From Gammaproteobacteria bacterium (GTDB lineage: Bacteria > Pseudomonadota > Gammaproteobacteria > GCA-002705445 > GCA-002716945), in contig JAURQW010000010.1 in the NCBI GenBank assembly GCA_030835925.1, forward strand, positions 17,867 through 81,866: 64,000 nt of DNA, in the 5' to 3' direction. The stretch's first letter is position 1, and each line of letters starts with the position of its first letter. The notes beneath the pieces were generated by a model that worked only from the letters and a program-made list of their open reading frames with translations, did not search any database and was not told the DNA's origin. Positions 2,625 through 63,810 of the stretch are shown here, piece by piece. The position numbers were made by a program, and so were the translations under genes.

Positions 2625-5162
2625 ATGGCAGAAAATCAAGAAATAAGATTCGAACAAGAAATGAGGCAATCATATCTAGATTATGCCATGAGTGTCATCG
2701 TAGGCAGGGCATTGCCGGATGTTAGAGATGGACTAAAACCAGTTCATAGAAGAGTATTATTTTCCATGCATGAATTAAATAATGGATGGAATAAAACATA
2801 TAAAAAATCCGCTAGGATAGTTGGGGATGTGATTGGTAAATATCACCCACATGGAGATTCAGCAGTATATGATACGATTGTCAGATTAGCCCAACCATTT
2901 TCCATGAGACACCCATTGGTAGATGGCCAAGGTAATTTTGGTTCAGTTGATGGTGACTCACCCGCCGCAATGAGATATACGGAAGTAAGAATGTCAAAAA
3001 TATCTCAAGAGCTATTGCAAGATATTGATAAAAGAACAGTTGATTTTTCACCAAACTATGATGGATCTGAAAAAGAGCCATCAGTTCTACCAACAAGGGT
3101 TCCGAATTTATTAGTAAATGGTTCAACTGGTATAGCGGTAGGGATGGCCACCAACATACCGCCGCATAATTTGGTTGAAGTTATAGATGCAACAATCGCA
3201 ATAATAGATGATCCGTCATTGTCCAAAAAAGACAAGATTGATGAATTAATTCAGAAAAGCAATATTCAGGGTCCAGATTTTCCTACATATGGAGAAATTA
3301 AAGATAACGGTGGCATTAGAGATGCACTCTTAAACGGAAGAGGTTCTTTTAAAATCAGAGCAAAACATATTGTTGAAAAAAAGGATAATGATAAAACATC
3401 AATCGTCTTTACCGAGTTACCATATCAGGTTAACAAAGCGAGATTAATTGAGAATATTGCTCAATTGGTCCGGGACAAAAAGATCAATGAGATCAGTCAG
3501 TTAAGGGATGAGTCTGATAAAGATGGTATGAGGCTTGTTGTCGAAATAAAAAGAGGTGAGCAACATGAAGTTGTATTAGGTTCTTTGTATAAGCATACAA
3601 ATGCTCAAATATCATATTCTGTGAATATGGTATGCCTTGTTGACGGTGAACCAAAAACTCTTGGTTTCATGGAAATCTTAAATGAATTTATTAAACATAG
3701 GCGCGAGGTTATCACAAGAAGAACTTTATATGATCTTGAAAAAGCTAAAAATAAAGCTCATATATTAGAAGGCCTAGGTATTGCTTTGTTGAATGTAGAC
3801 GATATTATCGCTCTTATAAAGAAATCCAAGAACACCATTGAAGCAAAGAGTTCATTAATATCTAAAGGTTGGAAACCAGGACAGTTAATTAAATTCCTTG
3901 GCATTGTCGATAAACAAACAGAAAACTTTATACCAAGCGATACCGAGTATGGATTAAATGGCAAAACATACAAATTGTCTGCCACTCAAGCTCAAGCTAT
4001 TTTAGATCTAAAGCTACAGAAACTAACTAATTTGGAGCAAGAAAAAATATTCTCTGATTATGAAATGACGATAACAGAAATAAAAAGATATATTAAAATT
4101 CTTACTCATACTGATGAGTTGGATGCAGTCATGAAGTTAGAACTTAATGATGTAAAAAAAGAATATGGCGAACCCAGGAGATCACTTGTATCTCAAGATG
4201 AAGGTGAGTTAAGAAAAGAAGATTTAATTAAAAAAGAAGAAGTCATTGTTGTTTTAACTAAGGCTGATTACGTTAAAAGACTGCCAGCTACTGATTTTAA
4301 AAGTCAACGGAGAGGTGGCCGAGGCATTAATGCAACAAAGTTTAAGGATGGTGATGAAGCCAAGCTTTTATGCCAAGCGCATACACATGATATAATTTTA
4401 TGTTTTTCTACACTAGGAAAAGTTTATGCTATTAGAGCCTTTGATATTCCTGATCCAAGTAGACAAGCGAGAGGGAGACCAATTAATAATGTTTTACCAT
4501 TGGAGACCAATGAATCAATTAGTACTTTTGTTGTAGTTAACTCATTTGAAGAGGATGCTTATTTATTTTTGTCGACTAAAAATGGCATGATAAATAAAAT
4601 CCCTATAAATCTCTTCAAAAAAATTAGGGCTACAGGATTAAAAGCTATACTTCTTAAATCAGGAGATGAGCTACTTGGTGCCCACTATACTGTTAAAGAT
4701 GAACATATCATGTTAGTAGCTCAAAACGGTAAAGCCATTAAATTTTTAGAGAGTGATGTTAGAGAAAGATTTAGAGGAACATTAGGAGTTAAAGGAATAA
4801 ACCTTTCAGGCAAAACTAAGTTGATTTCTATTCTTAAACCTATAGATGGTGAAATTATAACAGTGACAGAAAATGGTTATGGTAACAGAGTATCTGTTGA
4901 GAATTATAATATACAAAAAAGAGGAGGCGTTGGAGTTATTGGTATCAAAACCAGTAAACGAAATGGACAAGTTGTAGGCGCTGTAAATGTAAATCAAAAT
5001 GACCAAATAATTATGATTACAAACAAAGGTAAAACAATTAAAATAGCAGTAAGTGATATGCCTATAATCGGTAGAAATACACAAGGCGTGAGGCTTCAGG
5101 TACTTCAAGATGATGAAAAACTTGTAGCTATTTCAACAGAAACTATTGTTAATGATGAATGA
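2625..5162 (+). CDS. gyrA: DNA gyrase subunit A
   Basis: 845 aa. [28 protein letters not shown] and the QRDR-like [14 protein letters not shown] are unmistakable GyrA motifs. Confidence 0.97.
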
Positions 5163-13998: not shown

Positions 13999-14983
13999 AG
14001 TCATTCAATAATTTACTATAGCTATCTTTATGTCCTAGTTTAGCTCCATATACTTGGATAATTCTTGAAGAACAATAATTGGCAAAATTTAGAGATTCCT
14101 GAGGATTGGTTCCATCATATTTGTGCATATAGGCACCAAGAAACATATCACCCGCACCTGTGAAGTCTTTTGATGGTACATTTAATCCCTTCGTTGAATA
14201 TAAATTATGACTATCAAAACAAATTGCTCCATTACCCCCTAGTGTTATAACATATTCATTTGTTATACCTCTGAGAAATTCTTGCGCATCTTTTAAGTTA
14301 TCTGTTTCTGAAAAATTTAATGCTTCTTGTTCATTACAAAATACTATATCTGCCTTGTTTTTGAATAACTTTAATAAACTATCTCTAAAAAAAGAAACTA
14401 TATTTGGATCTGAAAGAGTTATAACTTTTTTTGTTGATGTTTGTTCAGTATACTCTAGCGCAGACATTCCAACAGACAATGTATCCTCAGATGTTACCAA
14501 GTACCCTTCAATCAATAAATACTCTGATGATACTAGTGCATCTTTATTAATATCAGTTATATCTAATAAAGATGATGACCCAAGATAAGTATTCATAGTT
14601 CTTTCATTATCTGGTGTAATTAAAACCAAACATTCTCCACTTCGTTGTTTTTCAGTTTGATTTACAAATGATTCTACTCCAGAATCAATTAAACATGTAA
14701 TGAAGTTGCTTCCTGTTTTATCATTCGAAACCTTACCTGAAAAACATACGCTGTTATCAAATTGAGCCATTGTAAATATAGAGTTTGCAACTGATCCTCC
14801 TGGAACAATTTTCTCTGGAGGCCTGATATTTCTCAAAGAATTATGAACCTTAAAATGTTTATCATATTCATTTAAGAGCATACAGCCCTTATCAAGACCT
14901 AAGCTTTTTAAAACCTCATCATTTACTTTATACTCATAATCAAGTAGCGCATTACCTATGCCATACATTTTATATTTATTCAT
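13988..14983 (-). CDS. PfkB-family carbohydrate/nucleoside kinase (adenosine kinase-like)
   Basis: 331 aa. N-terminal GNALLDY, GGSVANS, and the C-terminal PfkB signature DFTGAGDMFLGAY. Confidence 0.7.
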   Translation of the reverse strand: MNKYKMYGIGNALLDYEYKVNDEVLKSLGLDKGCMLLNEYDKHFKVHNSLRNIRPPEKIVPGGSVANSIFTMAQFDNSVCFSGKVSNDKTGSNFITCLIDSGVESFVNQTEKQRSGECLVLITPDNERTMNTYLGSSSLLDITDINKDALVSSEYLLIEGYLVTSEDTLSVGMSALEYTEQTSTKKVITLSDPNIVSFFRDSLLKLFKNKADIVFCNEQEALNFSETDNLKDAQEFLRGITNEYVITLGGNGAICFDSHNLYSTKGLNVPSKDFTGAGDMFLGAYMHKYDGTNPQESLNFANYCSSRIIQVYGAKLGHKDSYSKLLNDFKS

Positions 14984-15007
14984 AATTTTCCTTTCTATTA
15001 AATTTTA

Positions 15008-15060
15008 TAGCGAAGGAGGGAGTCGAACCCTCACGCACTTGCATGCAAGGGATTTTGAAT
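15008..15060 (-). pseudogene. 3' half of an interrupted tRNA-Leu(CAA): anticodon loop, variable arm, T arm and acceptor 3' strand
   Basis: Minus-strand read: ATTCAAAATCCCTTGCATGCAAGTGCGTGAGGGTTCGACTCCCTCCTTCGCTA. The T arm is GAGGG-TTCGACT-CCCTC. It is complementary to the 5' half at 20854-20891. Upstream sequence is not a D arm. Confidence 0.85.
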
Positions 15061-15061
15061 C
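15053..15061. repeat. 9-bp direct repeat TTTTGAATC at the left junction (target-site duplication or att core)
   Basis: Identical 9-mer at 20854-20862. Together the two copies correspond to the single anticodon loop/stem sequence of the uninterrupted tRNA. Confidence 0.8.
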
Positions 15062-15073
15062 ATTTTGAGTACA

Positions 15074-15097
15074 CTGTATGAATCGCAAACCCTTATA
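15074..15097. repeat. Left subterminal inverted repeat CTGTATGAATCGCAAACCCTTATA
   Basis: The reverse complement of 20826-20848 is CTGTATGAATCAAACCCCTTATA. There are 22 matching positions with two small indels. Confidence 0.8.
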
Positions 15098-15120
15098 TTC
15101 CAACACTTCTAGAACATCAA
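15092..15120 (-). promoter_or_regulatory. Candidate outward-facing sigma70-like promoter (TTGATG-17 nt-TATAAG) reading toward the tRNA 3' half and the PfkB kinase gene
   Basis: On the minus strand the -35 TTGATG is at 15120-15115 and the -10 TATAAG at 15097-15092, with a 17-nt spacer. It lies just downstream of the 28-bp repeat, the same layout as upstream of the island tRNA. AT-rich DNA yields such hexamers by chance. Confidence 0.25.
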
Positions 15121-15148
15121 AAAAAATGTTTGTGAAATGTTTGTGGTA
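15121..15148. repeat. 28-bp direct repeat AAAAAATGTTTGTGAAATGTTTGTGGTA (tandem AATGTTTGTG motif), left copy
   Basis: 27/28 identical to 20775-20802. The internal 10-11 bp motif is itself duplicated in tandem. Confidence 0.85.
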
Positions 15149-15224
15149 TATCTCTTATTTTCGCATCTTTTATCATTGATATAAATCTTAACAATTCTAA
15201 CATGAAAATATCATAAGAATAGTT

Positions 15225-15250
15225 TAAATAATCTACTTTAAGATTATTTA
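15225..15250. promoter_or_regulatory. Perfect 10-bp inverted repeat TAAATAATCT-N6-AGATTATTTA upstream of the first methyltransferase (possible operator)
   Basis: Read directly from the sequence. It lies 64-89 bp upstream of ATG 15314. There is no downstream T-run, so it is unlikely to be a terminator. A palindrome this size is only weakly significant in AT-rich DNA. Confidence 0.2.
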
Positions 15251-15313
15251 GGTATATTGGATATGGATAATAAAGTATAATTATTTCTATTTAATAAAAC
15301 TCACATAAGATGC

Positions 15314-16495
15314 ATGGATATATTAGTCAATTTTAAGCAAAACTTAAGTCTACCAAGACACTCATGGTTCAATATCAAAGAAGGATACAGTAGTCTATTA
15401 GTATCCAATATCATTGACGAACTAAATATTACTGATAAAGATCTGGTTCTCGATCCTTTTTCTGGTAGTGGAACAACAGTATTACATTGTGCTTTAAATA
15501 ATATTGAATCTATAGGTATAGAGGTAAATCCTTTTTTACACTTTTTATCAAAAAATAAATCATTAAATTTTAAAAAATCTCTTAAAGAAATTAGAAAGTC
15601 TATAGTAAATATTGATCTATCTGAGAGTTATGAAGAACCGCTACTATCTATTTCAAAAAAATTATTTGGAGGTCAACTAAAACAAGTACTTCAATTAAAA
15701 AAATATATCTCTAATATTAATGACATTAAAGTAAAAAACTTCTTACATACCGCATTTTTATGTAGTCTTGATTCTTGTAGTTATGCAAAAAAAGATGGCA
15801 ATGGATTACGATATCCAAAAAATAAAAAACCTAAAGATATCATCTTAGAATTTAATCAAAATGCATATTCAATGCTAGATGACATAGAAAAAACATGTAC
15901 TCTTAGAACACCAAGAATTATAAATAACAATACATTGAAGGAAATCACAAAGAAATCATTTAAAAAGCAATACTCAAATAAATTAAGTTTAATTATGTTT
16001 TCACCGCCTTATGCTAACTGCTTCGATTATACAGAGGTCTATAAAACAGAATTATGGTTTGGTGACTTTATTAAAAATTATAGTGAACTAAAAGTATTAA
16101 GAAACAAATCGATGTCATCACATCTTAATAAAGACTTTGCTAACATTAAATCTATTGAACTTATTAACTATATTAATAAATTAATTAATAAAAAATTATG
16201 GTCAAAAAAAATAATTCCTATGCTTAATAATTATTTTGTTGAATTTGAATTATTGCTAGAGAATTTATATGATTTACTAAAAAAAGAAAAATACTGTATA
16301 ATAGTTGTTGGTAATTCATCTTATGGAAATTGTGTAATTCCTACTGATATTATAATTACTAAGATTGCAACAAGAATTGGTTATTCATCTGCTAAAATTA
16401 ATGTTGTACGAAAACTAGGAACAAGTTCTCAGCAATATAAAAAAGTTGATAAACCAGATTTACTTCGTGAGAGTATAATTTACCTTCAAAAATAA
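15314..16495 (+). CDS. DNA methyltransferase (N6-adenine/N4-cytosine type; motif I precedes motif IV)
   Basis: 393 aa. SAM-binding LDPFSGSGTT is at nt 15452-15478 and the catalytic SPPY (MFSPPYANCFDY) at nt 16001-12. About 150 aa between the motifs and about 160 aa after them could hold a target-recognition region. Confidence 0.8.
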   Translation: MDILVNFKQNLSLPRHSWFNIKEGYSSLLVSNIIDELNITDKDLVLDPFSGSGTTVLHCALNNIESIGIEVNPFLHFLSKNKSLNFKKSLKEIRKSIVNIDLSESYEEPLLSISKKLFGGQLKQVLQLKKYISNINDIKVKNFLHTAFLCSLDSCSYAKKDGNGLRYPKNKKPKDIILEFNQNAYSMLDDIEKTCTLRTPRIINNNTLKEITKKSFKKQYSNKLSLIMFSPPYANCFDYTEVYKTELWFGDFIKNYSELKVLRNKSMSSHLNKDFANIKSIELINYINKLINKKLWSKKIIPMLNNYFVEFELLLENLYDLLKKEKYCIIVVGNSSYGNCVIPTDIIITKIATRIGYSSAKINVVRKLGTSSQQYKKVDKPDLLRESIIYLQK

Positions 16496-17196
16496 TGTTA
16501 AAACTTAATAAAATTTATAATCTTGATTGTTTAGATGGACTTTCTAAGTTAGATGATGAATCAATTGACTTGATAATAACATCTCCACCATATAATTTAG
16601 GTAATACTCATCATACTGGTACAAAAAAAACACAATCTTATGAAGATGATATGCCAGAAGTAGATTACCAAAAATGGCAGAAGCAAGTTCTTGATGAATG
16701 TTTTCGAGTTTTAACTCCTGTGGGTTCAATGATTTACCAACATAAGAATCGAATAAAAAAAGGACTTCAGATATCGCCTTACGAGTGGATATTTAAAACA
16801 AAATTTATTGTTAAACAAGAAATTGTCTGGATAAATAGGAGTCAAAATTTTGATAAAATTAGATTTTATCCCTTTACAGAGAGAGTATATTGGATGACTA
16901 AAAACAGTAAGATTAAACTCAAGAATACAATTAATAAACAGGATGTCTTTGATTGGACTGAATGGAGACCTGTAGGCACTAAGATGCAACATACGAGAGC
17001 ATTCCCAGAAAAACTGGTGTCAGATATGCTCGCAGTATTTCCAGATGCAAAAATAATATTAGATCCTTTTTTAGGTTCTGGGACTGTTGCTTATGTAGCA
17101 AAAAAACTTAAGAGAGATTATATAGGGTTTGATATTGATAAAGATTTCGTAAAACAAGCAAGATCAAGATTAAGAAAAAAAGATTTATTCGATTAA
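16495..17196 (+). CDS. DNA methyltransferase, beta-class N4/N6 (motif IV precedes motif I; N6_N4_Mtase-like)
   Basis: 233 aa. IITSPPYNLG (nt 16582-93) lies near the N-terminus and LDPFLGSGTVAYVAKKLKRDYIGFDID (from nt 17062) near the C-terminus. TAATG stop/start overlap with the upstream MTase. Confidence 0.85.
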   Translation: MLKLNKIYNLDCLDGLSKLDDESIDLIITSPPYNLGNTHHTGTKKTQSYEDDMPEVDYQKWQKQVLDECFRVLTPVGSMIYQHKNRIKKGLQISPYEWIFKTKFIVKQEIVWINRSQNFDKIRFYPFTERVYWMTKNSKIKLKNTINKQDVFDWTEWRPVGTKMQHTRAFPEKLVSDMLAVFPDAKIILDPFLGSGTVAYVAKKLKRDYIGFDIDKDFVKQARSRLRKKDLFD

Positions 17197-19869
17197 TATA
17201 ATCTTATTTTTAATTTTATTATGTTTAATTTTATCTGGGAATATTTGTTCCATATGTTTTGCAAAATAACCAAAATCATCTTTCCCTAAATTCAGAAAAG
17301 TTTCTAATTTAATGAAATTAATACCAATTAGCTTGAGTTGATCAGAAAATTCATTATTTAAACTGTCCACATAGTCTTTTGAATGTTTCTCATTAGACAT
17401 CATTATATCCAAATCTTTATTTTGATCTCTTATATATTTAATTCTTGCACAACATTTTTCAAAAGATTTATTATCAACATTTTCACAAATAGTAATTCCC
17501 CATAGAAACTCAACACGATTTATCTCTTTTACATTTTTCAAGACATTCATAGAAAAATTATATGGGAACCATGTAATATTATTCATTTTTTTTAGCATGT
17601 TAATAATCATATACTTGAATTGTTTTTCGGTATTATTATTAGCATATCTTTGTCCTTCTGTAGTTAGAGTAATTATATTATCAGTATGGTCTCTTATCAT
17701 TCCTGCTCGATAAGCATATGGTATAAGATTATTGTCAATTTTTTTATTATGAATATCACTATATTTCTTTTTAACGTCTGATTTTGTTAATTCTTCTTTA
17801 GAAAATACCCCAATTCCTTTATCAATTAGATTTTTCCATCCAGCAAATGCCATTCGTACAATATTAAATTTTGTTTTCGAAGAAACTATCTTTTCTGTAC
17901 TAAGTGTTTTTTTTAGTAATTTTATTTTTCCAGAATTTAATTTTGCAATTTCAAGTCTAATATTCTTTGAAATATTCTGCATGTTAATATCTTTATGATA
18001 AGATTTTACCTTGATTTTTCCACCTCCATTAGGGGTAGCAACTGATGTTGATAAATTAATCTTATCAATTTCATCTTCTAAACTTTTATCATGCGCTTTG
18101 ATTGCTTCAATTATTTCAAAAACATGTAAGAACTTTTTCCGATTATATTTTTTATCATATTTATCAATAATTATAGGAATAAATATTTTAGCAATCTTAT
18201 TTGGTCTATCTTTAGGTATTCTGAGACATCTTCCTACTGCTTGAACAATATCTATAACAGATTGTCTTCTTTCCGCGAATACTACACAATCTACATCTGG
18301 CACATCTATTCCTTCAGTAAGACATTTTGCATTAGTTAGAACTGCTTTTTTGGAATTCCTGAATTCTGACATTATACCTTTTCTAGTATCATCAGTTTTC
18401 TTTGAACTTATGGAGTCTACAAAATAATCCTTATTCTTAGTCAAATGGGATATTGCATTTGCTTTTGTATTTGCAGAGTTAATGCTATTAGTAAATACTA
18501 ATATTTTATTAGTGGAATAATTATCAATAAGTTTTTTAATTCCATCTGCAATTATCAAATCAAAGTTTTGAAACTTTTCGTTCTCAATTAAAGTATGTTT
18601 ATCAAGATGTAATCTACCTAAATCATCATCATATATTTCAATAATTATTTCATAATCAGCAATTACCCCTGCGTCTATGGCATCTCTGAATGAGTAGTGA
18701 TGGAATTCATTCCCATAATCATCTGTATCATCCATAGAATAAAAATCTAAACTCTCTATTTCTGCACTTGCTTTAATATTAGGTTTTAAAACTCTTGGTG
18801 TTGCAGTCATGAATAATTTCTTCTTAGTTAGTACATTAAAGCATGATTGATACTTCCTTTTTGCTACTCCGGCGGTTCTATGCGCTTCATCAATAAATGT
18901 TAAATCAAACTGAATTGATTTAGATGCTTCTAAGACTTTTGGTAAAGAATCATACGTAGATAAAATAACTATTGAGTCATCTATTTCAAGGAAATTTTTT
19001 ATTACTTGAGGATCAGTTGTATAATATGTGCCTAATTCACTCAGATCAATATCATAACGATCATCATCACTATCTGGTTTAAAAGAACTAACAACACAAA
19101 GAAATTTAAATTCTTTAGATCTGTATTTCAACCATTCATCTATAGTTTGTTTTACAAGATAGATACTTGGTACAACGAAAAGCGTTTTTTTACACTCAAG
19201 TTCTTCTTTTATCAGTAAAGAAGTAATAGTTTTACCTGTTCCACATGCAGAGATAAATTTTCCTTTATTTGTATGTTTAAATCCATCACATACATCATTT
19301 ACAGCAGTAGTCTGGTAAGATCTTGCTTCAAGTTTGTTACGTATGATTTCTTTATCTTGAATATATGCGGTAAGATTTTGGAAAAATAACTTATTTAGAA
19401 TATCTAAATCATTAAAAAGAATCACTCTAGGTATTTTTTGATTGTCTTTAAAGAATTCATGAGATATAGTTTTTACATTCGAAAATACATACCATCCGTC
19501 AAGTCTCTGACCTACTTGATATGATGTCATAAGTTTGTCAGCACCAATCTTTCTGTTCGACATAAACTTTGTCTGATAATTAAATATACTACCATCAGAG
19601 TGTATAACAATACCGTCACATCCACGTTCTTTTCCACTTTTAGGTTGTAAATTATATTTATTTTTTAGACTTTCTGGTATTTCATCAAAATGGTAGATTT
19701 CTTTTATTTGATATTTATCCTTATTTAAAAAAAAGTAAATGTAATTAAAATATTCAAATAAATCACCTTTATATGTTGTATCACCAATATTAGATAACTT
19801 ATCTTCTAATTCAGAAAAATTATTAAACTTATTTTTAATAAAGAAATCTTTACATTTAATAGTATTCAT
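17185..19869 (-). CDS. Mrr-like (PD-(D/E)xK variant) nuclease fused to an SF2 DEAH helicase/translocase (Type ISP / HsdR / Res-like), with an uncharacterised ~300-aa C-terminal region
   Basis: 894 aa. The N-terminus reads KGDLFEYF...ERGCDGIVIHSDGSIFNYQTKF (Mrr-type FE...D-G-[IV]...Q-x-K). Helicase motifs are ARSYQ, ACGTGKT (I), FIDEAHR (II), MTATP (III), TEGIDVPDVD (V) and QAVGRCLR (VI). The 3' end overlaps the MTase gene convergently by 12 bp. Confidence 0.85.
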   Translation of the reverse strand: MNTIKCKDFFIKNKFNNFSELEDKLSNIGDTTYKGDLFEYFNYIYFFLNKDKYQIKEIYHFDEIPESLKNKYNLQPKSGKERGCDGIVIHSDGSIFNYQTKFMSNRKIGADKLMTSYQVGQRLDGWYVFSNVKTISHEFFKDNQKIPRVILFNDLDILNKLFFQNLTAYIQDKEIIRNKLEARSYQTTAVNDVCDGFKHTNKGKFISACGTGKTITSLLIKEELECKKTLFVVPSIYLVKQTIDEWLKYRSKEFKFLCVVSSFKPDSDDDRYDIDLSELGTYYTTDPQVIKNFLEIDDSIVILSTYDSLPKVLEASKSIQFDLTFIDEAHRTAGVAKRKYQSCFNVLTKKKLFMTATPRVLKPNIKASAEIESLDFYSMDDTDDYGNEFHHYSFRDAIDAGVIADYEIIIEIYDDDLGRLHLDKHTLIENEKFQNFDLIIADGIKKLIDNYSTNKILVFTNSINSANTKANAISHLTKNKDYFVDSISSKKTDDTRKGIMSEFRNSKKAVLTNAKCLTEGIDVPDVDCVVFAERRQSVIDIVQAVGRCLRIPKDRPNKIAKIFIPIIIDKYDKKYNRKKFLHVFEIIEAIKAHDKSLEDEIDKINLSTSVATPNGGGKIKVKSYHKDINMQNISKNIRLEIAKLNSGKIKLLKKTLSTEKIVSSKTKFNIVRMAFAGWKNLIDKGIGVFSKEELTKSDVKKKYSDIHNKKIDNNLIPYAYRAGMIRDHTDNIITLTTEGQRYANNNTEKQFKYMIINMLKKMNNITWFPYNFSMNVLKNVKEINRVEFLWGITICENVDNKSFEKCCARIKYIRDQNKDLDIMMSNEKHSKDYVDSLNNEFSDQLKLIGINFIKLETFLNLGKDDFGYFAKHMEQIFPDKIKHNKIKNKIILIE

Positions 19870-19905
19870 CTAAATATTTTGGCATATTATGCATTACAAT
19901 GATAT

Positions 19906-20600
19906 ATGATCAAATTTAAAAACTTAGAACTTATTAAATCCTTATATGCTTATCAGAATGTTAAAATTACTGAGATTGTTGATTCTTATGACGACGCTAT
20001 CTTGTGTAGAAAAATATTAAGTAAAAGTTATAATTGGAGTTTACATGATACTCAACAACTCAATAATATATTAAAAAACACAAGTCATCATTCAGATATA
20101 AGAAATAATAAAGAATATGCGTTTAATATAATTACTAACTGGTTAATAGAAGACTTAATTTATGAAACACTAAGCATAGATTATGGAGTTACAAAAAAAT
20201 AGGATCTGATAATAATAGAAAACTACTGAATGGAAGAAATATTACTTCTGAACCTGATCTCTTAATCTCTTTAAAGAATAATATTATGATTGAAATTATT
20301 GCTAATTATCCCATAAAAGATTATTCATCATTTTGGGAGAAAGAGTTATATTTTGATTTAAGAGATAATAAAATGAATTCATTGCTAGATAGATGTAAGA
20401 CAAATAGAGTATTGATTATTGGCGTTGTTGTTGAAAAAAAACAGATTTTTATTATGGAGATTAATTCTGATACATCATTTCAACAAATCAGAAGTGAATC
20501 AAATTTTGGTTTCAAAAAAACATCTAGAATACACTTTCATGGCAGAAAAATAAAGTTGTATCCTATCTCGTCTCTTAATACAATTATAAGAAATATCTAA
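19906..20600 (+). pseudogene. Hypothetical ~231-aa ORF interrupted at an A7 tract (halves 19906-20202 and 20166/20286-20600); weak PD-(D/E)xK-like pattern
   Basis: ORF1 ends ...GVTKK-TAG immediately after A7 (20193-20199). The frame of ORF2 is open from 20166, and a -1 shift in the A-run joins them: ...VTKKIGSDNNRKLLNGRNITSEPDLLISLKNNIMIEIIANYP... The pattern E(LIEDL)...PD...IEI is reminiscent of restriction nucleases but has no clear lysine. Confidence 0.5.
20193..20199 (+). other. A7 homopolymer / A_AAA_AAA slippery heptamer directly followed by TAG
   Basis: In ORF1 frame the codons are aca aaa aaa tag. A -1 slip, or an A7-to-A8 change, continues in the frame of 20286-20600. Confidence 0.6.
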
Positions 20601-20637
20601 ATACCACATATCTTTTTTACTATTCAATAAAAACTAA

Positions 20638-20721
20638 TACCGATAATCAGAATCGAACTGATACTCTCTTGCGAGAATCGGATTTTGAATCCGACGCGTC
20701 TACCTATTCCGCCATATCGGC
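20638..20721 (-). tRNA. tRNA-Leu (anticodon CAA), intact, carried inside the island
   Basis: Minus strand: GCCGATA-TG-GCG-GAATAGGTAGA-CGC-G-TCGGA-TTCAAAA-TCCGA-TTCTCGCAAGAGAGT-ATCAG-TTCGATT-CTGAT-TATCGGT-A. It has the class II long variable arm. All stems pair (1-72 is G-U). No CCA is encoded. Confidence 0.9.
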
Positions 20722-20732
20722 ATTAGTCATTT

Positions 20733-20760
20733 ATCATACCAAAAACACAAACATTTTGAA
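20733..20760 (-). promoter_or_regulatory. Candidate promoter of the island tRNA-Leu (TTCAAA-16 nt-TATGAT)
   Basis: On the minus strand the -10 TATGAT at 20738-20733 lies 11 nt upstream of tRNA position 1. The -35 is at 20760-20755 and overlaps an inverted AATGTTTGTG motif copy (20746-20757). Confidence 0.35.
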
Positions 20761-20774
20761 AAGGCGTATGCACG

Positions 20775-20802
20775 AAAAAATGTTTGTGCAATGTTTGTGG
20801 TA
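20775..20802. repeat. 28-bp direct repeat AAAAAATGTTTGTGCAATGTTTGTGGTA, right copy
   Basis: 27/28 identical to 15121-15148. An additional inverted copy of the motif (CACAAACATTTT) is at 20746-20757 and a partial copy (AATGTTTGG) at 20915-20923. Confidence 0.85.
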
Positions 20803-20825
20803 ATTATTGTCTAATACTCAATAGG

Positions 20826-20848
20826 TATAAGGGGTTTGATTCATACAG
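20826..20848. repeat. Right subterminal inverted repeat TATAAGGGGTTTGATTCATACAG
   Basis: Reverse complement matches 15074-15097 (see the left copy). Confidence 0.8.
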
Positions 20849-20853
20849 TTTTG

Positions 20854-20891
20854 TTTTGAATCCCTCGTGTCTACCATTCCACCACTTCGCC
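20854..20891 (-). pseudogene. 5' half of the interrupted tRNA-Leu(CAA): acceptor 5' strand, D arm, 5' anticodon stem and loop
   Basis: Minus-strand read: GGCGAAG-TG-GTG-GAATGGTAGA-CAC-G-AGGGA-TTCAAAA. It pairs with the 3' half at 15008-15060. Positions 20854-20862 are the 9-bp repeat TTTTGAATC. Confidence 0.85.
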
Positions 20892-20901
20892 AGAGAAGAT
20901 A

Positions 20902-20930
20902 ATTGTAACAAATTAATGTTTGGCATCCAA
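20902..20930 (-). promoter_or_regulatory. Candidate native promoter of the interrupted tRNA-Leu (TTGGAT-17 nt-TACAAT)
   Basis: On the minus strand the -10 TACAAT at 20907-20902 lies 10 nt upstream of tRNA position 1, with the -35 at 20930-25. It would now transcribe the 5' half and read into the island toward the intact tRNA. Confidence 0.35.
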
Positions 20931-20948
20931 ATATGATACAATTTAATT

Positions 20949-21146
20949 ATGGATATAATGACATACATGATTGTTGCCATAGTAATTGTTATCTTTGCTT
21001 TTTATATTATAACTCAAATAAAGTTATCCAAAAAAATTGCTCTCAGAGACACTACGCTAGAGAATATTGAAGAAAAGCTTAAGAAACATAAGTTAATCGG
21101 TGGCAGACATAAGAGAACTAATAAAAAAAATCCTCCAATAGTCTAG
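20949..21146 (+). CDS. Hypothetical small membrane protein
   Basis: 65 aa with one strongly hydrophobic N-terminal helix (MIVAIVIVIFAFYIITQI) and a basic tail. No recognisable family. Coding status is uncertain. Confidence 0.3.
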   Translation: MDIMTYMIVAIVIVIFAFYIITQIKLSKKIALRDTTLENIEEKLKKHKLIGGRHKRTNKKNPPIV

Positions 21147-21147
21147 T

Positions 21148-21588
21148 TTAGTTATTTTTTTTTGCTGATCTAGCTCGTTTAGCCATTTCAGGCGAATATG
21201 CCTCACCTGACCACAGCATACTGTACACAATTTCTTCGTTACCATTTTCACAGACATCTATTACTTTTTGAAATAATGGTTGAAATGTATCACTTTTATG
21301 AGAATTTTCATGATCTTCATATGTTTTCCAAAAAGTTATTATCAAAGCTTCACGATCTTTAAGGTCAGATTCTAAAGCCTTGCCTATATTACTACCTTCA
21401 TTCGAGATTTGGCCACTGTTTAGAACTACCATACCACCTATAAAGCCTGTATCTGAGTGATAAGTTTTTACATTTTCACACATCAGCGCTACTCTTTCCT
21501 GAAGGTCATCGAGCGTATACTCTTTTTTCAAAATTACGCGATTAATTGTAACAATGCCGTCAAAAGGAAAATTATTTATTAAACTCAT
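21148..21588 (-). CDS. Hypothetical protein, possibly ABM/ferredoxin-like alpha+beta barrel domain
   Basis: 146 aa with non-repetitive composition. The segment LIITFWKTYEDHENSHKSDTFQPLF resembles ABM-domain proteins. The functional call is weak. Confidence 0.4.
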   Translation of the reverse strand: MSLINNFPFDGIVTINRVILKKEYTLDDLQERVALMCENVKTYHSDTGFIGGMVVLNSGQISNEGSNIGKALESDLKDREALIITFWKTYEDHENSHKSDTFQPLFQKVIDVCENGNEEIVYSMLWSGEAYSPEMAKRARSAKKNN

Positions 21589-62507: not shown

Positions 62508-62557
62508 AAAATATTATTGATGATATTCTATTTATCAATTATGATGCCTTATCTTAT

Positions 62558-62630
62558 TCCTCGGTAGCTCAGTTGGTAGAGCGAGTGACTGTTAATCACC
62601 AGGTCGGCGGTTCGAGTCCGTCCCGAGGAG
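62558..62630 (+). tRNA. tRNA-Asn (anticodon GTT)
   Basis: TCCTCGG-TA-GCTC-AGTTGGTA-GAGC-G-AGTGA-CTGTTAA-TCACC-AGGTC-GGCGG-TTCGAGT-CCGTC-CCGAGGA-G. It forms a clean cloverleaf. No CCA is encoded. Confidence 0.93.
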
Positions 62631-62634
62631 TAGT

Positions 62635-63810
62635 TTAAAGAGAGTTGACTATTCTTTTCATGGCTTCTTTTAGAGAATCCATGTCAATAGCAATAGATAT
62701 TCTGATGTGACCTTCTTGACCAAATGCACTTCCCGGAACAACCGCAACTTTAGCAGTATTTAATAAATGGAGTGCTAATTCTGTATCATTAGTAATTTTT
62801 TTGCTATTTGCTATATATTCTTTGAATGAAGGAAAAACATAAAATGTACCATCAGTTTCTTTACACATGACCCCGTCTATCAAGTTTAATTCATTAACAA
62901 CATAATCATGTCTTTTTTTATATTCTTTTGTCATTAGTGGCATTTCGTCACATGTTTGCGATAGAGCTGCGCAAGCCGCAGCCTGCGAAATTGAACTTGC
63001 ACAAGATGTACTCTGAGACTGAAGAGTTTTCATTTTTTTTATGATTTCTTTATTTCCTGCAGCATACCCAATCCTCCATCCTGTCATTGAATATGCTTTT
63101 GATACACCATTGAGCACAATTGTTCTATCTTTTAATTTAGGACATGCATTCACAATGTTATGAAACTTTTCTTTATTCCAATGAATATGTTCATATATAT
63201 CATCAGATGATACGTATACGTCATTGTATCTTAAAAGAATATCACCAAGTTTTCTCAATAACTCAGAGGTAAAGTATTTGCCACTAGGATTATTTGGACT
63301 GTTCAACATGAATAATTTTGTTTTATTAGTTAGAAGCGCTTCAAAATCAGATGGATTTATATCAAAATTCTCTTCATAACTTGTTTCAAGCATTATTGGA
63401 GTTCCACCTGAATATACAACCATGTCAGCATAAGATACCCAGTATGGCTGAGGTATGATAACTTCATCGCCTTCATCGATTAATACTTGTAGAAGATTAA
63501 ATATTGACTGTTTACAGCCAGCTGACACAATTACTTCATCCATCTCATAATCTAGATGATTCTCATTTTTGAATTTGCTGATTATTGCTTTTTTGAGATT
63601 TACAGTGCCATCCACAGATGTATACTTTGTCTGTCCACTATCTATGGCATTTTTCGCTGCTTCTTTAATATATTGAGGTGTATCGAAGTCAGGCTCACCT
63701 ACAGTTAAGACAAGCACATCCTCTCCATTTTGGCGCATTTCGTTCGCCTTGGATGTTAGTGCCATTGTCGATGATGGTTTAATTAATTTTATTCTATTTG
63801 AGAACGTCAA
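62635..63810 (-). CDS. Class I pyridoxal-phosphate aminotransferase (aspartate aminotransferase-like)
   Basis: 391 aa with a TTG start. GEPDFDTP, NSPNNPSG, and SKAYSMTGWRIGY (PLP lysine). Confidence 0.85.
   Translation of the reverse strand: MTFSNRIKLIKPSSTMALTSKANEMRQNGEDVLVLTVGEPDFDTPQYIKEAAKNAIDSGQTKYTSVDGTVNLKKAIISKFKNENHLDYEMDEVIVSAGCKQSIFNLLQVLIDEGDEVIIPQPYWVSYADMVVYSGGTPIMLETSYEENFDINPSDFEALLTNKTKLFMLNSPNNPSGKYFTSELLRKLGDILLRYNDVYVSSDDIYEHIHWNKEKFHNIVNACPKLKDRTIVLNGVSKAYSMTGWRIGYAAGNKEIIKKMKTLQSQSTSCASSISQAAACAALSQTCDEMPLMTKEYKKRHDYVVNELNLIDGVMCKETDGTFYVFPSFKEYIANSKKITNDTELALHLLNTAKVAVVPGSAFGQEGHIRISIAIDMDSLKEAMKRIVNSL

Follow-up and report, generated by a model that had tools for sequence, protein, structure and literature searches.

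The closest known principle to the arrangement described here is tRNA-dependent lysogeny, for which phages provide an experimental precedent. In the actinobacteriophage Fionnbharth, other K4 phages and the Cluster L phages, attB lies inside a tRNA gene, and attP and attB share about 10 bp, so that integration leaves the tRNA unrestored; the attP core lies between putative arm-type sites (Guerrero-Bustamante and Hatfull, 2024, PMC10865867, where the Lj965 prophage of Lactobacillus johnsonii is also cited). Classical islands (Islander, PMC4383910) encode an integrase, and an element-borne 3' segment restores the target. Tycheposons and additive flexible genomic islands are known from marine and freshwater oligotrophs; tycheposons bring their own tyrosine (or large serine) recombinase and replication genes, and leave partial repeats of the same tRNA (bioRxiv 10.1101/2020.12.28.424599; PMC10872708). 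To tRNA regeneration by islands there is one experimentally studied exception, the phages with a spare tRNA. Elements without a recombinase gene can be moved in trans, among them CIMEs, IMEX (host XerCD at dif), the pdif modules of Acinetobacter plasmids and integron cassettes. These are small, bounded by recombination sites and dependent on an enzyme encoded elsewhere, and they can stack in arrays. To our knowledge, none of them targets an anticodon loop or replaces the gene that it destroys.

We analysed a stretch of 64,000 nucleotides from a gammaproteobacterial contig (JAURQW010000010.1), referred to as the window. Its host tRNA-Leu(CAA) gene consists of two halves on the minus strand, separated by an insert of 5,792 bp (15062–20853) and flanked by a 9-bp direct repeat, TTTTGAATC, with copies at 15053–15061 and 20854–20862. 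The 5' half (20891–20854; acceptor 5' strand, D arm, 5' anticodon stem and loop) forms an attL-like left junction, and the 3' half (15060–15008; loop, 3' anticodon stem, variable arm, T arm, acceptor 3' strand and A73) an attR-like right junction. On the minus strand the repeat copy at 20854–20862 reads GATTCAAAA; it includes the 7-nt anticodon loop TTCAAAA, the common core. An earlier sequence-only reading had proposed that the gene is split in its anticodon loop by an insertion of about 5.8 kb, and both halves and both repeat copies were found exactly as it described. Deletion of the insert plus one repeat copy (15062–20862) in silico rebuilds the gene, as that reading had maintained: ARAGORN calls the joined sequence tRNA-Leu(caa). 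On the real window, ARAGORN finds no tRNA at either half or either junction, and the host 5' half continues into non-tRNA DNA, which bears out the view that the gene is truly broken and not regenerated. The same reading had overlooked the insert's own intact tRNA-Leu(CAA), the absence of an integrase and the structured ends.

The uninterrupted version exists in relatives. Every base of the rejoined gene agrees with the intact tRNA at locus L002, from a MAG in which the kinase next to the tRNA is 94% identical to that of the window. Neither half has decayed, as had been suggested earlier: both match the L002 gene exactly, and the 5' half has the same sequence as the corresponding portion of the uninterrupted gene in ten other empty-site contigs. 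When the joined flanks were aligned to ten independent empty-site contigs, they gave one ungapped block over the junction, with 95–99.5% identity. The site is bordered by queA and ORFs of 146 and 65 aa to one side and by a PfkB kinase gene and pyrF to the other. Contigs that encode an identical copy of the 65-aa, 146-aa or kinase protein either are empty (L008, L009, L010, L014, L015, L056, L063 and a 29-kb JGI contig) or have the same restriction-modification cassette (L012, L016, L059 and L069). The insertion is recent and still polymorphic in the population, which explains the undecayed halves. An assembly artefact is excluded, because the same occupied structure recurs in three other assemblies (L012 = L017; L016 and L059 = L068; L069).

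The insert carries a complete tRNA-Leu(CAA) of its own (20637–20722, minus strand; ARAGORN; Rfam RF00005, 59.7 bits), located 131 nt inside the junction and 67% identical to the split host gene. A promoter-like site (20733–20762, minus strand; TTTTCA, 18 nt, TG-n-TATGAT), assigned by consensus match only, ends about 11 nt upstream of this tRNA. At equal distance from the tRNA, the −10 box TATGAT of the window is replaced by TAGAAT in the related cassettes L001, L025 and L070. The only differences between the cassette tRNAs of the window and L001 are three fully compensatory acceptor-stem pairs; that of L072 shows one compensatory pair difference, in the variable arm. Across eight cassette tRNA variants, 18 of the 27 pairs covary without any stem break. 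These compensatory changes and the covariation indicate that the cassette tRNA is under selection. UUG makes up 13% of the Leu codons in host genes. The presence of a complete tRNA-Leu(CAA) with a promoter-like site supports the view that decoding capacity would be replaced by the insert rather than lost, and we infer that the cassette tRNA is expressed and needed.

Both ends of the insert are structured. At the near end, next to the host 5' half, an inverted-repeat arm, CTGTATGAATCAAACCCCTTATA (20826–20848, minus strand), lies 5 nt inside the core. Compared with the reverse complement of the far-end arm, TATAAGGGTTTGCGATTCATACAG (15074–15097, minus strand), it shows 23 matching bases in a gapped alignment of 26 columns. 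The arms, 5 and 13 nt from the core, are unusually far away for tyrosine-recombinase core sites. The near end of L001 has a homologous but diverged arm. The far-end arm, a non-coding sequence, is about 93% conserved between the window and L001; it also precedes displaced 3' halves in L021, L023, L024 and L065. Further inside, the near end has a doublet, CACAAACATTGCACAAACAT (20780–20799, minus strand), a candidate arm-type protein-binding site that is conserved in L001, L025 and L070, with a third, inverted copy at 20746–20754. A repeat search revealed a far-end doublet, CACAAACATTTCACAAACAT (15126–15145, minus strand), in the same orientation, conserved in L001, L021 and L023. Within the 64 kb, the CACAAACAT doublet occurs at the two element ends only (expected 0.01). 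Abutting the true core at the far junction is a second loop-like unit, the pseudo-core ACTCAAAAT (15062–15070, minus strand); the number of loop-like units at this junction is one in L024, two in the window and three in L021. All junctions read in the family, left and right, have TTCAAAA or a one-base variant of it (CTCAAAA, TTCAGAA) in common. The family-wide core measures 7 nt, the repeat of the window 9 bp. Two unrelated families of end sequences, FAR1 and FAR2, target the same anticodon loop.

The cargo of the window cassette is predicted to be a restriction-modification system. Two DNA methyltransferases (393 aa, 15314–16495, and 233 aa, 16495–17196; plus strand) were recognized by Pfam N6_N4_Mtase and by PADLOC MTase_II (E 1e-73 and 6e-40). 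An 894-aa ATP-dependent restriction nuclease-helicase (17185–19869, minus strand; Pfam ResIII and Helicase_C) matches the Type IIG and Type I REase models of PADLOC and matches the Type ISP enzymes LlaBIII (E 6e-47) and LlaGI (1.5e-43) over their N-terminal part. Two small ORFs on the plus strand (19906–20600), of 98 aa (19906–20202) and 104 aa (20286–20600), gave no match in Pfam, PADLOC or PHROGs. They accompany the restriction-modification cargo in L012, L068 and L069 and are absent from L001 and L025; they belong to the cargo of this cassette and lie outside the family core.

Cassettes of this family occupy the same chromosomal site in uncultured marine Gammaproteobacteria. Their constant parts are ends of about 130 nt and the complete tRNA; their size ranges from 0.36 to 5.8 kb. 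The cargo may be a restriction-modification system, a nuclease, a MORN-repeat protein, T5orf172, in one case a TylF methyltransferase, or none. The TylF methyltransferase is found in L001, which has the same host tRNA and split as the window and homologous ends around a 1.5-kb insert. The minimal member, L025, comprises 363 nt with a promoter and the tRNA, no ORF, and both ends kept. In five cases (window, L001, L025, L070, L076) non-tRNA DNA follows the host 5' half, and about 130 nt on lies the intact tRNA, complete with a 5' half and with acceptor and anticodon stems of its own.

In L019, L020, L021 and L071, 3' halves of different tRNA-Leu(CAA) genes form arrays. The island of L071, the one seen complete, starts with the host 5' half, the near end, the intact tRNA, T5orf172 and a first 3' half, followed by a 292-aa ORF, a second 3' half, a 261-aa ORF, the host 3' half and the kinase gene. 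It holds three displaced 3' halves against one 5' half. Displaced 3' halves differ among themselves. When they were compared by eye with the extant 5' half, neither their anticodon stems nor their acceptor stems were able to pair with it, so that each derives from a different whole tRNA. Far-end/loop junctions exist for six or more distinct 3' halves of target tRNAs, and in each the join is at TTCAAAA or at a sequence that differs from it by one base. Modules are evidently also shuffled by homologous recombination via the conserved tRNA, since one T5orf172 array was found behind differing near ends and differing host tRNAs; one combination of near end and tRNA precedes differing cargo. Such recombination could explain part of the polymorphism.

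No integrase or transposase is encoded in the insert, in the whole 64-kb window or in about 20 related cassettes, and neither a Phage_integrase nor any other recombinase domain was detected in the window insert by Pfam, PADLOC or PHROGs. The hallmark recombinase/replication module of tycheposons is likewise absent from the window cassette and the about 20 relatives, and phage genes are absent from the window cargo (Pfam, PADLOC). A viral-contig scan for the junction revealed no circular attP form, and an autonomous relative of the cassette was found neither in one metagenome scan nor in the viral-contig scans. With the element sequence as query, the latter gave nothing, or only chance matches or an unrelated phage; generic tRNA-Leu genes were the only matches in phage BLAST. 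There is no dif-like site, attC-like site or adjacent IntI gene at the locus.

We consider it probable that the insert is a non-autonomous, site-specific, tRNA-replacing integrative cassette which is moved in trans by a recombinase. Read along the tRNA strand, its backbone would consist of a near end of about 130 nt (inverted-repeat arm, CACAAACAT repeats, promoter), the complete tRNA-Leu(CAA), the cargo, and a far end of about 110–130 nt (CACAAACAT repeats, inverted-repeat arm, pseudo-core). The target of the cassette would be the resident tRNA-Leu(CAA), with recombination at its anticodon loop. As the shared sequence would be the loop TTCAAAA only, extended by chance to 9 bp in the window, the resident gene would be split and not rebuilt. 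The cassette tRNA would take over UUG decoding, and loss of the cassette by anything other than precise excision would then be difficult. The recombinase may be supplied from elsewhere in the genome or by a helper element. A tyrosine recombinase seems the most likely enzyme, because the 7-nt overlap, the symmetric anticodon stem and the arm-type repeats on both sides correspond to the classic layout. One enzyme may not explain everything, because FAR1 and FAR2 both target the same loop. Multi-cassette islands may have arisen by repeated strikes on whichever tRNA-Leu(CAA) was then intact, each leaving a 3' half; given the three 3' halves and one 5' half of L071, simple nesting would not suffice for array growth without an extra step. 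More tentatively, with slightly less than even confidence, we propose that such recombinase-free 'tRNA-swap cassettes' are an undescribed class of mobile module which destroys and replaces tRNA-Leu(CAA), is moved in trans and builds defence islands.

An unlikely alternative is that the insert is a dead relic: an integrase-bearing island would have lost its integrase, and its states would now spread only by homologous recombination through the flanking core genes, the tRNA and the 3' halves. The lack of any recombinase and of a circular junction fits this view, as does the shuffling of T5orf172 arrays, near ends, tRNAs and cargo. However, the absence of a recombinase from at least 20 independent cassettes, together with the retention of both ends by the 363-nt member, favours a systematically non-autonomous design over repeated loss. 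In addition, each of the at least six target 3' halves joined at the loop core would need its own site-specific event, and both end types are conserved non-coding sequence.

A non-autonomous DDE-type transposon, MITE-like or composite with cargo, which uses a transposase encoded elsewhere, strongly prefers the anticodon loop and makes a 7–9-bp target-site duplication, is considerably less probable. Such an element would account for the inverted repeats of about 23 bp near both ends, the short flanking direct repeats and the lack of an element-encoded enzyme. The inverted repeats are not terminal, however, but set inward from the direct repeat by 5 and 13 nt, and the CACAAACAT doublets are direct, not inverted, between the ends. 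By eye, the FAR2-type ends of L025 have inverted repeats of at most 4–5 bp around the core. The recurrence of TTCAAAA or a one-base variant at all junctions read is more readily explained by a shared crossover core than by a staggered cut.

We give little credence to a classical tRNA-targeting island, in which an element-borne 3' part would restore a working hybrid tRNA at one of the junctions, all remaining fragments being displaced copies, even though the 3'-half arrays look like the repeats of partial tRNAs in tycheposons and additive islands. Neither the five host 5' halves that run into non-tRNA DNA nor, by eye, the displaced 3' halves that cannot pair with extant 5' halves agree with it, and at this locus a tRNA-regenerating island is rejected by the sequence itself.

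A functional split or intron-containing tRNA gene, joined by giant-intron splicing or archaea-like trans-splicing, can practically be dismissed. In its favour, the two undecayed halves are collinear and share one strand, and the ambiguous insertion point spans the canonical 37/38 intron position. But recent insertion accounts for the lack of decay, the insert contains a tRNA of its own and protein genes in opposite orientations, the archaeal/eukaryal tRNA-splicing endonuclease is not known from bacteria, and a group I or other tRNA intron is rejected by Rfam, which at a permissive threshold (E ≤ 0.1) identified in these 7 kb (14500–21500) the cassette tRNA and one chance-level sRNA match but no intron or ribozyme family.

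The locus presents the spare-tRNA trick in tiny cassettes without an enzyme gene, with mostly defence cargo, in uncultured ocean bacteria. If the cassette is moved in trans as proposed, this would be a testable route by which defence genes are gained and exchanged in streamlined marine genomes without obvious mobile-element machinery, and it would point to an undiscovered recombinase that recognizes the anticodon loop. It would also account for the wholesale differences in tRNA-Leu(CAA) at this site between near-identical strains. The cassette tRNA would then serve as a built-in addiction or selection marker, and repeated strikes would keep turning over the sequence of a housekeeping tRNA in one abundant marine group of Gammaproteobacteria. 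The tRNA diversity (at least eight covarying variants at one locus) might help in evading toxins or phage nucleases that attack tRNAs. tRNA-based island finders, which search beside an integrase for a displaced 3' fragment and a regenerated tRNA, would miss or mis-delimit such cassettes.

Among systems that move in trans, the cassettes resemble CIMEs in being bounded by attL- and attR-type sites, with a repeat core and conserved structured ends, and in having no recombination genes. Unlike integron cassettes, they have no attC-like site and no IntI/attI platform, the flanks being the queA side and the PfkB kinase/pyrF side. With tycheposons and additive islands they share streamlined aquatic hosts, cargo beside one particular tRNA, defence genes in this cargo, and strings of partial tRNAs from successive integrations (L019, L020, L021, L071); they differ from tycheposons by the lack of hallmark genes, the replacement of a whole tRNA and the heterogeneity of the 3' halves.

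Integrases reportedly include an anticodon-loop sublocation class (Williams 2002). As in this class, the crossover would take place in the 7-nt anticodon loop flanked by a symmetric stem. The tRNA target, the direct repeats at the ends and the displaced tRNA fragments that mark old events are common to the cassettes and to classical tRNA/tmRNA islands and prophages. In contrast to the classical islands of Islander, the cassette has no tyrosine integrase gene, and the disrupted tRNA is not restored but a whole tRNA gene with its own promoter-like site is supplied. What stands at the two ends is dead, a 5' half on one side and a 3' half on the other, and the live gene lies between them.

The likeness to tRNA-dependent lysogeny extends to the attB-like site, which overlaps the anticodon loop of a host tRNA-Leu(CAA) gene, to the short core (9-bp repeat, 7-nt family core) with no functional tRNA at the junctions, and to the tRNA carried by the element (20637–20722). 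These phages have their own tyrosine integrase, whereas the cassettes encode none and the 363-nt L025 has no ORF at all. Unlike temperate phages, the cassettes measure 0.36–5.8 kb, contain no phage genes, carry mostly defence-type cargo and accumulate in arrays.

The interruption of the host tRNA-Leu(CAA) gene was confirmed by joining its two halves in silico and by comparison with related genomes. On the minus strand, the 5' half (20891-20854) reads GGCGAAGTGGTGGAATGGTAGACACGAGGGATTCAAAA and the 3' half (15060-15008) reads ATTCAAAATCCCTTGCATGCAAGTGCGTGAGGGTTCGACTCCCTCCTTCGCTA. The sequence-only reading had placed an insertion of about 5.8 kb with a 9-bp repeat between these halves, and this holds: the interrupting DNA amounts to 5,792 bp and a single copy of the 9-bp repeat. 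ARAGORN calls no tRNA at either half of the intact window, and a tRNA-Leu(caa) once 15062-20862 is deleted. A search of genome collections with the adjacent PfkB kinase as query led to a metagenome-assembled genome (MAG; L002, kinase 94% identical) in which an intact tRNA-Leu(CAA) sits directly between the 65-aa ORF and the kinase; this tRNA is identical to the rejoined window sequence. The joined window flanks also align with 10 independent contigs bearing the empty site, at 95–99.5% identity, in one ungapped block across the junction. An occupied arrangement like that of the window recurs in three other assemblies, which rules out an assembly artefact as origin of the split. Taken together, the rejoined tRNA call, L002, the empty-site contigs and the three occupied assemblies establish that the split is real, precise, recent and naturally polymorphic. 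The resident gene was split precisely at the anticodon loop and has not been regenerated.

The only tRNA that ARAGORN calls in the split-gene region lies inside the insert. It is a complete tRNA-Leu with the same anticodon, CAA (20637-20722, minus strand; Rfam tRNA, 59.7 bits), separated by 131 nt from the host 5'-half junction and only 67% identical to the split gene. A promoter-like site (TTTTCA-18-TG-TATGAT, by sequence match) lies upstream of it on the same strand. The sequence-only reading, correct on the split, had missed this gene, which was found by ARAGORN and Rfam. Interpretation of the locus as a tRNA intron or split tRNA was rejected, as an Rfam search of 14500-21500 at E ≤ 0.1 matched no intron family.

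The cargo of the window cassette comprises two N6/N4 DNA methyltransferases and an 894-aa nuclease-helicase similar to LlaGI and LlaBIII, two Type ISP enzymes, over their N-terminal part. Two small adjacent ORFs on the plus strand, of 98 aa (19906-20202) and 104 aa (20286-20600), separate the restriction gene from the cassette tRNA; searches of Pfam, PADLOC and PHROGs gave no match for either, and the pair invariably accompanies restriction–modification (RM) cargo of the window type. A weak Rfam match to RT-6 RNA inside the restriction gene (17704-17771, plus strand; 24.3 bits, gathering score 46.7, E 0.057) is most likely due to chance.

Another MAG of the same species group (L001) carries an insert of 1.5 kb at the same place in the same host tRNA, with a TylF-type methyltransferase as its sole gene. 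The two inserts have the near end (on the side of the host 5' half) and the tRNA in common, homology stopping about 13 nt past the tRNA, and share about 130 nt of the far end at 93% identity. Their tRNAs differ solely by three fully compensatory acceptor-stem pairs (GCCGATA/TATCGGT versus GCCACCA/TGGTGGT). A metagenome scan with the variable arm of the cassette tRNA yielded nine contigs. A minimal member in the same host tRNA (L025, 363 nt) consists of promoter, tRNA and ends, with no ORF at all. On other contigs, the cargo includes NucS/PD-(D/E)XK nucleases, MORN-repeat proteins, a NOV_C protein, T5orf172, a Schlafen/AlbA_2 protein, an HNH nuclease, an Mrr-helicase, Type I and Type IIG RM systems, and MT-A70 or N6_N4 methylases. 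Across the family the non-coding ends are conserved and the cargo is variable, and occupancy by cassettes is polymorphic in nature. A homologue of the NucS-like cassette gene was also seen in a different context (L066, 3700-3830), where its neighbours are a doublet in direct orientation (AAAAGTGTGTGTAA twice) and what seems to be the degenerate 3' part of a different tRNA; other tRNA genes may harbour analogous cassettes.

The host is an uncultured marine Gammaproteobacterium represented by MAGs. The G+C content is 30.8% for the window and 26.6% for the insert. More than 4,000 variants of the neighbouring 146-aa gene occur in ocean metagenomes, indicating that the host is very abundant there.

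Every family junction that we read has TTCAAAA or a one-base variant (CTCAAAA, TTCAGAA) in common, and the 9-bp repeat of the window is this 7-nt core plus two chance matches. Window-type ends contain an inverted repeat of about 23 bp, 5 and 13 nt from the core. Near each end of the window insert lies a CACAAACAT doublet, both in the same orientation; the rest of the 64 kb has none. A loop-like pseudo-core, ACTCAAAAT (15062-15070, minus strand), abuts the core on the far side. Loop-like units of about 10 nt vary in number at the right junction: one in L024 (~955-966), the pseudo-core ACTCAAAAT fused straight to the 3' stem; two in the window, pseudo-core and true core; and three in L021 (~1185-1215, tRNA orientation), the pseudo-core and two GATTCAAAAT units. 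Such variation may have been left behind by repeated recombination or by slippage. A second, unrelated far-end family targets the same loop (…AAATTGTGGGG…GAAGTCT, abutting TTCAAAA). The near-end arm of L001 has diverged, and the ends of L025 are unrelated to those of the window. A long hairpin at attP, the predicted junction of the circular cassette, forms in the window element; it was given no weight, since the attP sequences of L001 and L025 fold without a comparable one. A DDE-transposon reading of the insert was rejected. The 7-nt overlap, the symmetric anticodon stem and the arm-type repeats on both sides would correspond to the layout of a lambda-like tyrosine recombinase.

On five contigs (L019, L020, L021, L065 and L071), an array of two to four units, each made up of cargo, far end and 3' half, lies behind one intact tRNA-Leu(CAA). 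Within any one island, the sequences of the 3' halves diverge in anticodon stem, variable arm, T stem and acceptor. As read by eye, the displaced 3' halves would mispair with the extant 5' half (e.g. 3' TCCGA/TGGTGGT or TCGCT/CACTGGT facing 5' AGGGA/GCCACTG or TCGGA/GCCACCA), so that each derives from a separate, once complete tRNA. The classical mechanism, in which 3' segments brought by elements restore a constant host 5' half, is thereby excluded. Different tRNA-Leu(CAA) sequences were hit repeatedly and independently.

Simple nesting of cassettes was found not to suffice as an explanation. The one island seen complete (L071, reached by a T5orf172 look-up; L070 has the same head and the flanking genes on the queA side) reads host G-type 5' half, near end, intact tRNA, T5orf172, first 3' half, 292-aa ORF, second 3' half, 261-aa ORF, host 3' half, kinase. 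Its three 3' halves stand against a single 5' half, that of the host, and the array therefore did not grow by nesting alone. Simple nesting predicts stacked 5' halves left of arrays; look-ups of 146-aa protein variants for these yielded only cassette-free sites. A deletion between near ends, which are direct repeats, could have removed the inner 5' halves. Excision from an inner left site to an outer right site could instead release composite circles with internal scars from the outset. The identical T5orf172 array is found behind different near ends in hosts with different native tRNAs (L070, L075, L076, L072), which indicates that whole arrays move and/or that homologous recombination through the conserved tRNA shuffles modules. 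In L072 and L074 (20-105, tRNA orientation) the cassette tRNA is a variant: its anticodon loop reads CTCAAAA, and its variable-arm stem has changed in a compensatory manner from CTC…GAG to CTG…CAG, the T5orf172 gene behind it being identical. Five array contigs that include the intact tRNA (L019, L021, L022, L023 and L024), all from assembly MDSV01, break inside it or just upstream, which suggests that short-read assembly is defeated at the left junction by strain heterogeneity or by repeats.

Strains with a roughly 90% identical 146-aa neighbour differ completely in the tRNA-Leu(CAA) gene found here (L026, 10720-10802; L045, ~3220-3300; L035, 4768-4851; L003, 9899-9980), with 54–81% identity between types. 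In the lineages of the 146-aa protein variants P0030 and P0032 the tRNA at the site is inverted. A degenerate far-end-like remnant (…GTCAATAAATATAGGGCTATAGAGTCAT…) is left before the kinase. Among eight host-type and cassette-borne variants, double compensatory changes affect 18 of 27 predicted pairs and no pair is broken in the acceptor, D, anticodon or T stems, indicating that all look functional. The locus thus appears to have been overwritten repeatedly. All eight have a G1-U72 wobble atop the acceptor stem and A73 (alignment A3, columns 1 and 83); ARAGORN lengthens the acceptor stem by one extra T-A pair.

The window insert contains no integrase, transposase or other recombinase: none was detected among all five insert ORFs (Pfam, PADLOC, PHROGs). 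Pfam revealed no recombinase either in 27 window ORFs, the larger ones not named from gene order shared with annotated relatives, or in about 35 ORFs from related cassettes; Pfam-negative ORFs were re-checked against PHROGs, and about 20 cassettes yielded no recombinase. The cassettes encode no such enzyme. Window ORFs covered by direct scans or named via shared gene order are all housekeeping, and the genes of related cassettes are mainly of defence type or without assigned function. A tRNA-Asn(GTT) (62557-63810 region) has directly after it a 391-aa ORF in opposite orientation (62635-63810), the classic position of an integrase; Pfam identifies it as a class I/II aminotransferase, and there is no island.

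In IMG/VR, pattern scans with the cassette tRNA, the G-type tRNA, both far-end types, the type-2 near end and the predicted attP junction (…CATACAGTGTACTCAAAATGATTCAAAACAAAACTGTATGAATC…) gave no match. The CACAAACAT doublet gave five, four of which lie within apparent coding sequence and are taken as chance; the fifth is on contig L044. BLAST of both cassette ends against 50,697 phage genomes returned only generic tRNA-Leu matches. An unrelated phage-like contig of about 40% G+C (L044, 5830-7200; IMG/VR UViG_3300013094_000128) carries the exact 24-mer CCACAAACATTTCACAAACATTTT, identical to the far-end doublet of the window and flanked, as read by eye, by a sequence like a tRNA 3' fragment and a tyrosine integrase-like ORF. 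This weak lead may hint at the type of integrase that binds such repeats, or may be coincidence.

We propose that a circular cassette recombines with the anticodon loop by conservative site-specific recombination, with the enzyme, probably a tyrosine recombinase, provided in trans. The cassette tRNA would functionally replace the split gene, an ‘addiction’ stabilising the cassette, and arrays would grow by repeated targeting of whichever tRNA is intact at present. The anatomy of the cassette is near certain; we judge the overall account of its mechanism to be fairly likely.

We found no published account of such tRNA-replacing cassettes. The window locus lacks the defining features of integrons and, according to Rfam, of tRNA introns, the hallmark recombinase and replication genes of tycheposons, and both the integrase and the regeneration that define classical islands. 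It resembles CIME, IMEX elements and pdif modules as an att-bounded module that would be moved in trans; to our knowledge, none of these targets a tRNA loop or carries a replacement gene. A short core, a tRNA that is not rebuilt and a tRNA of matching isotype carried by the element have been experimentally established in mycobacteriophages as ‘tRNA-dependent lysogeny’, and the same principle was noted for prophage Lj965 (PMC10865867). The window locus shares three of the defining features of this system and departs from it in two: the cassette encodes no integrase and is not a phage.
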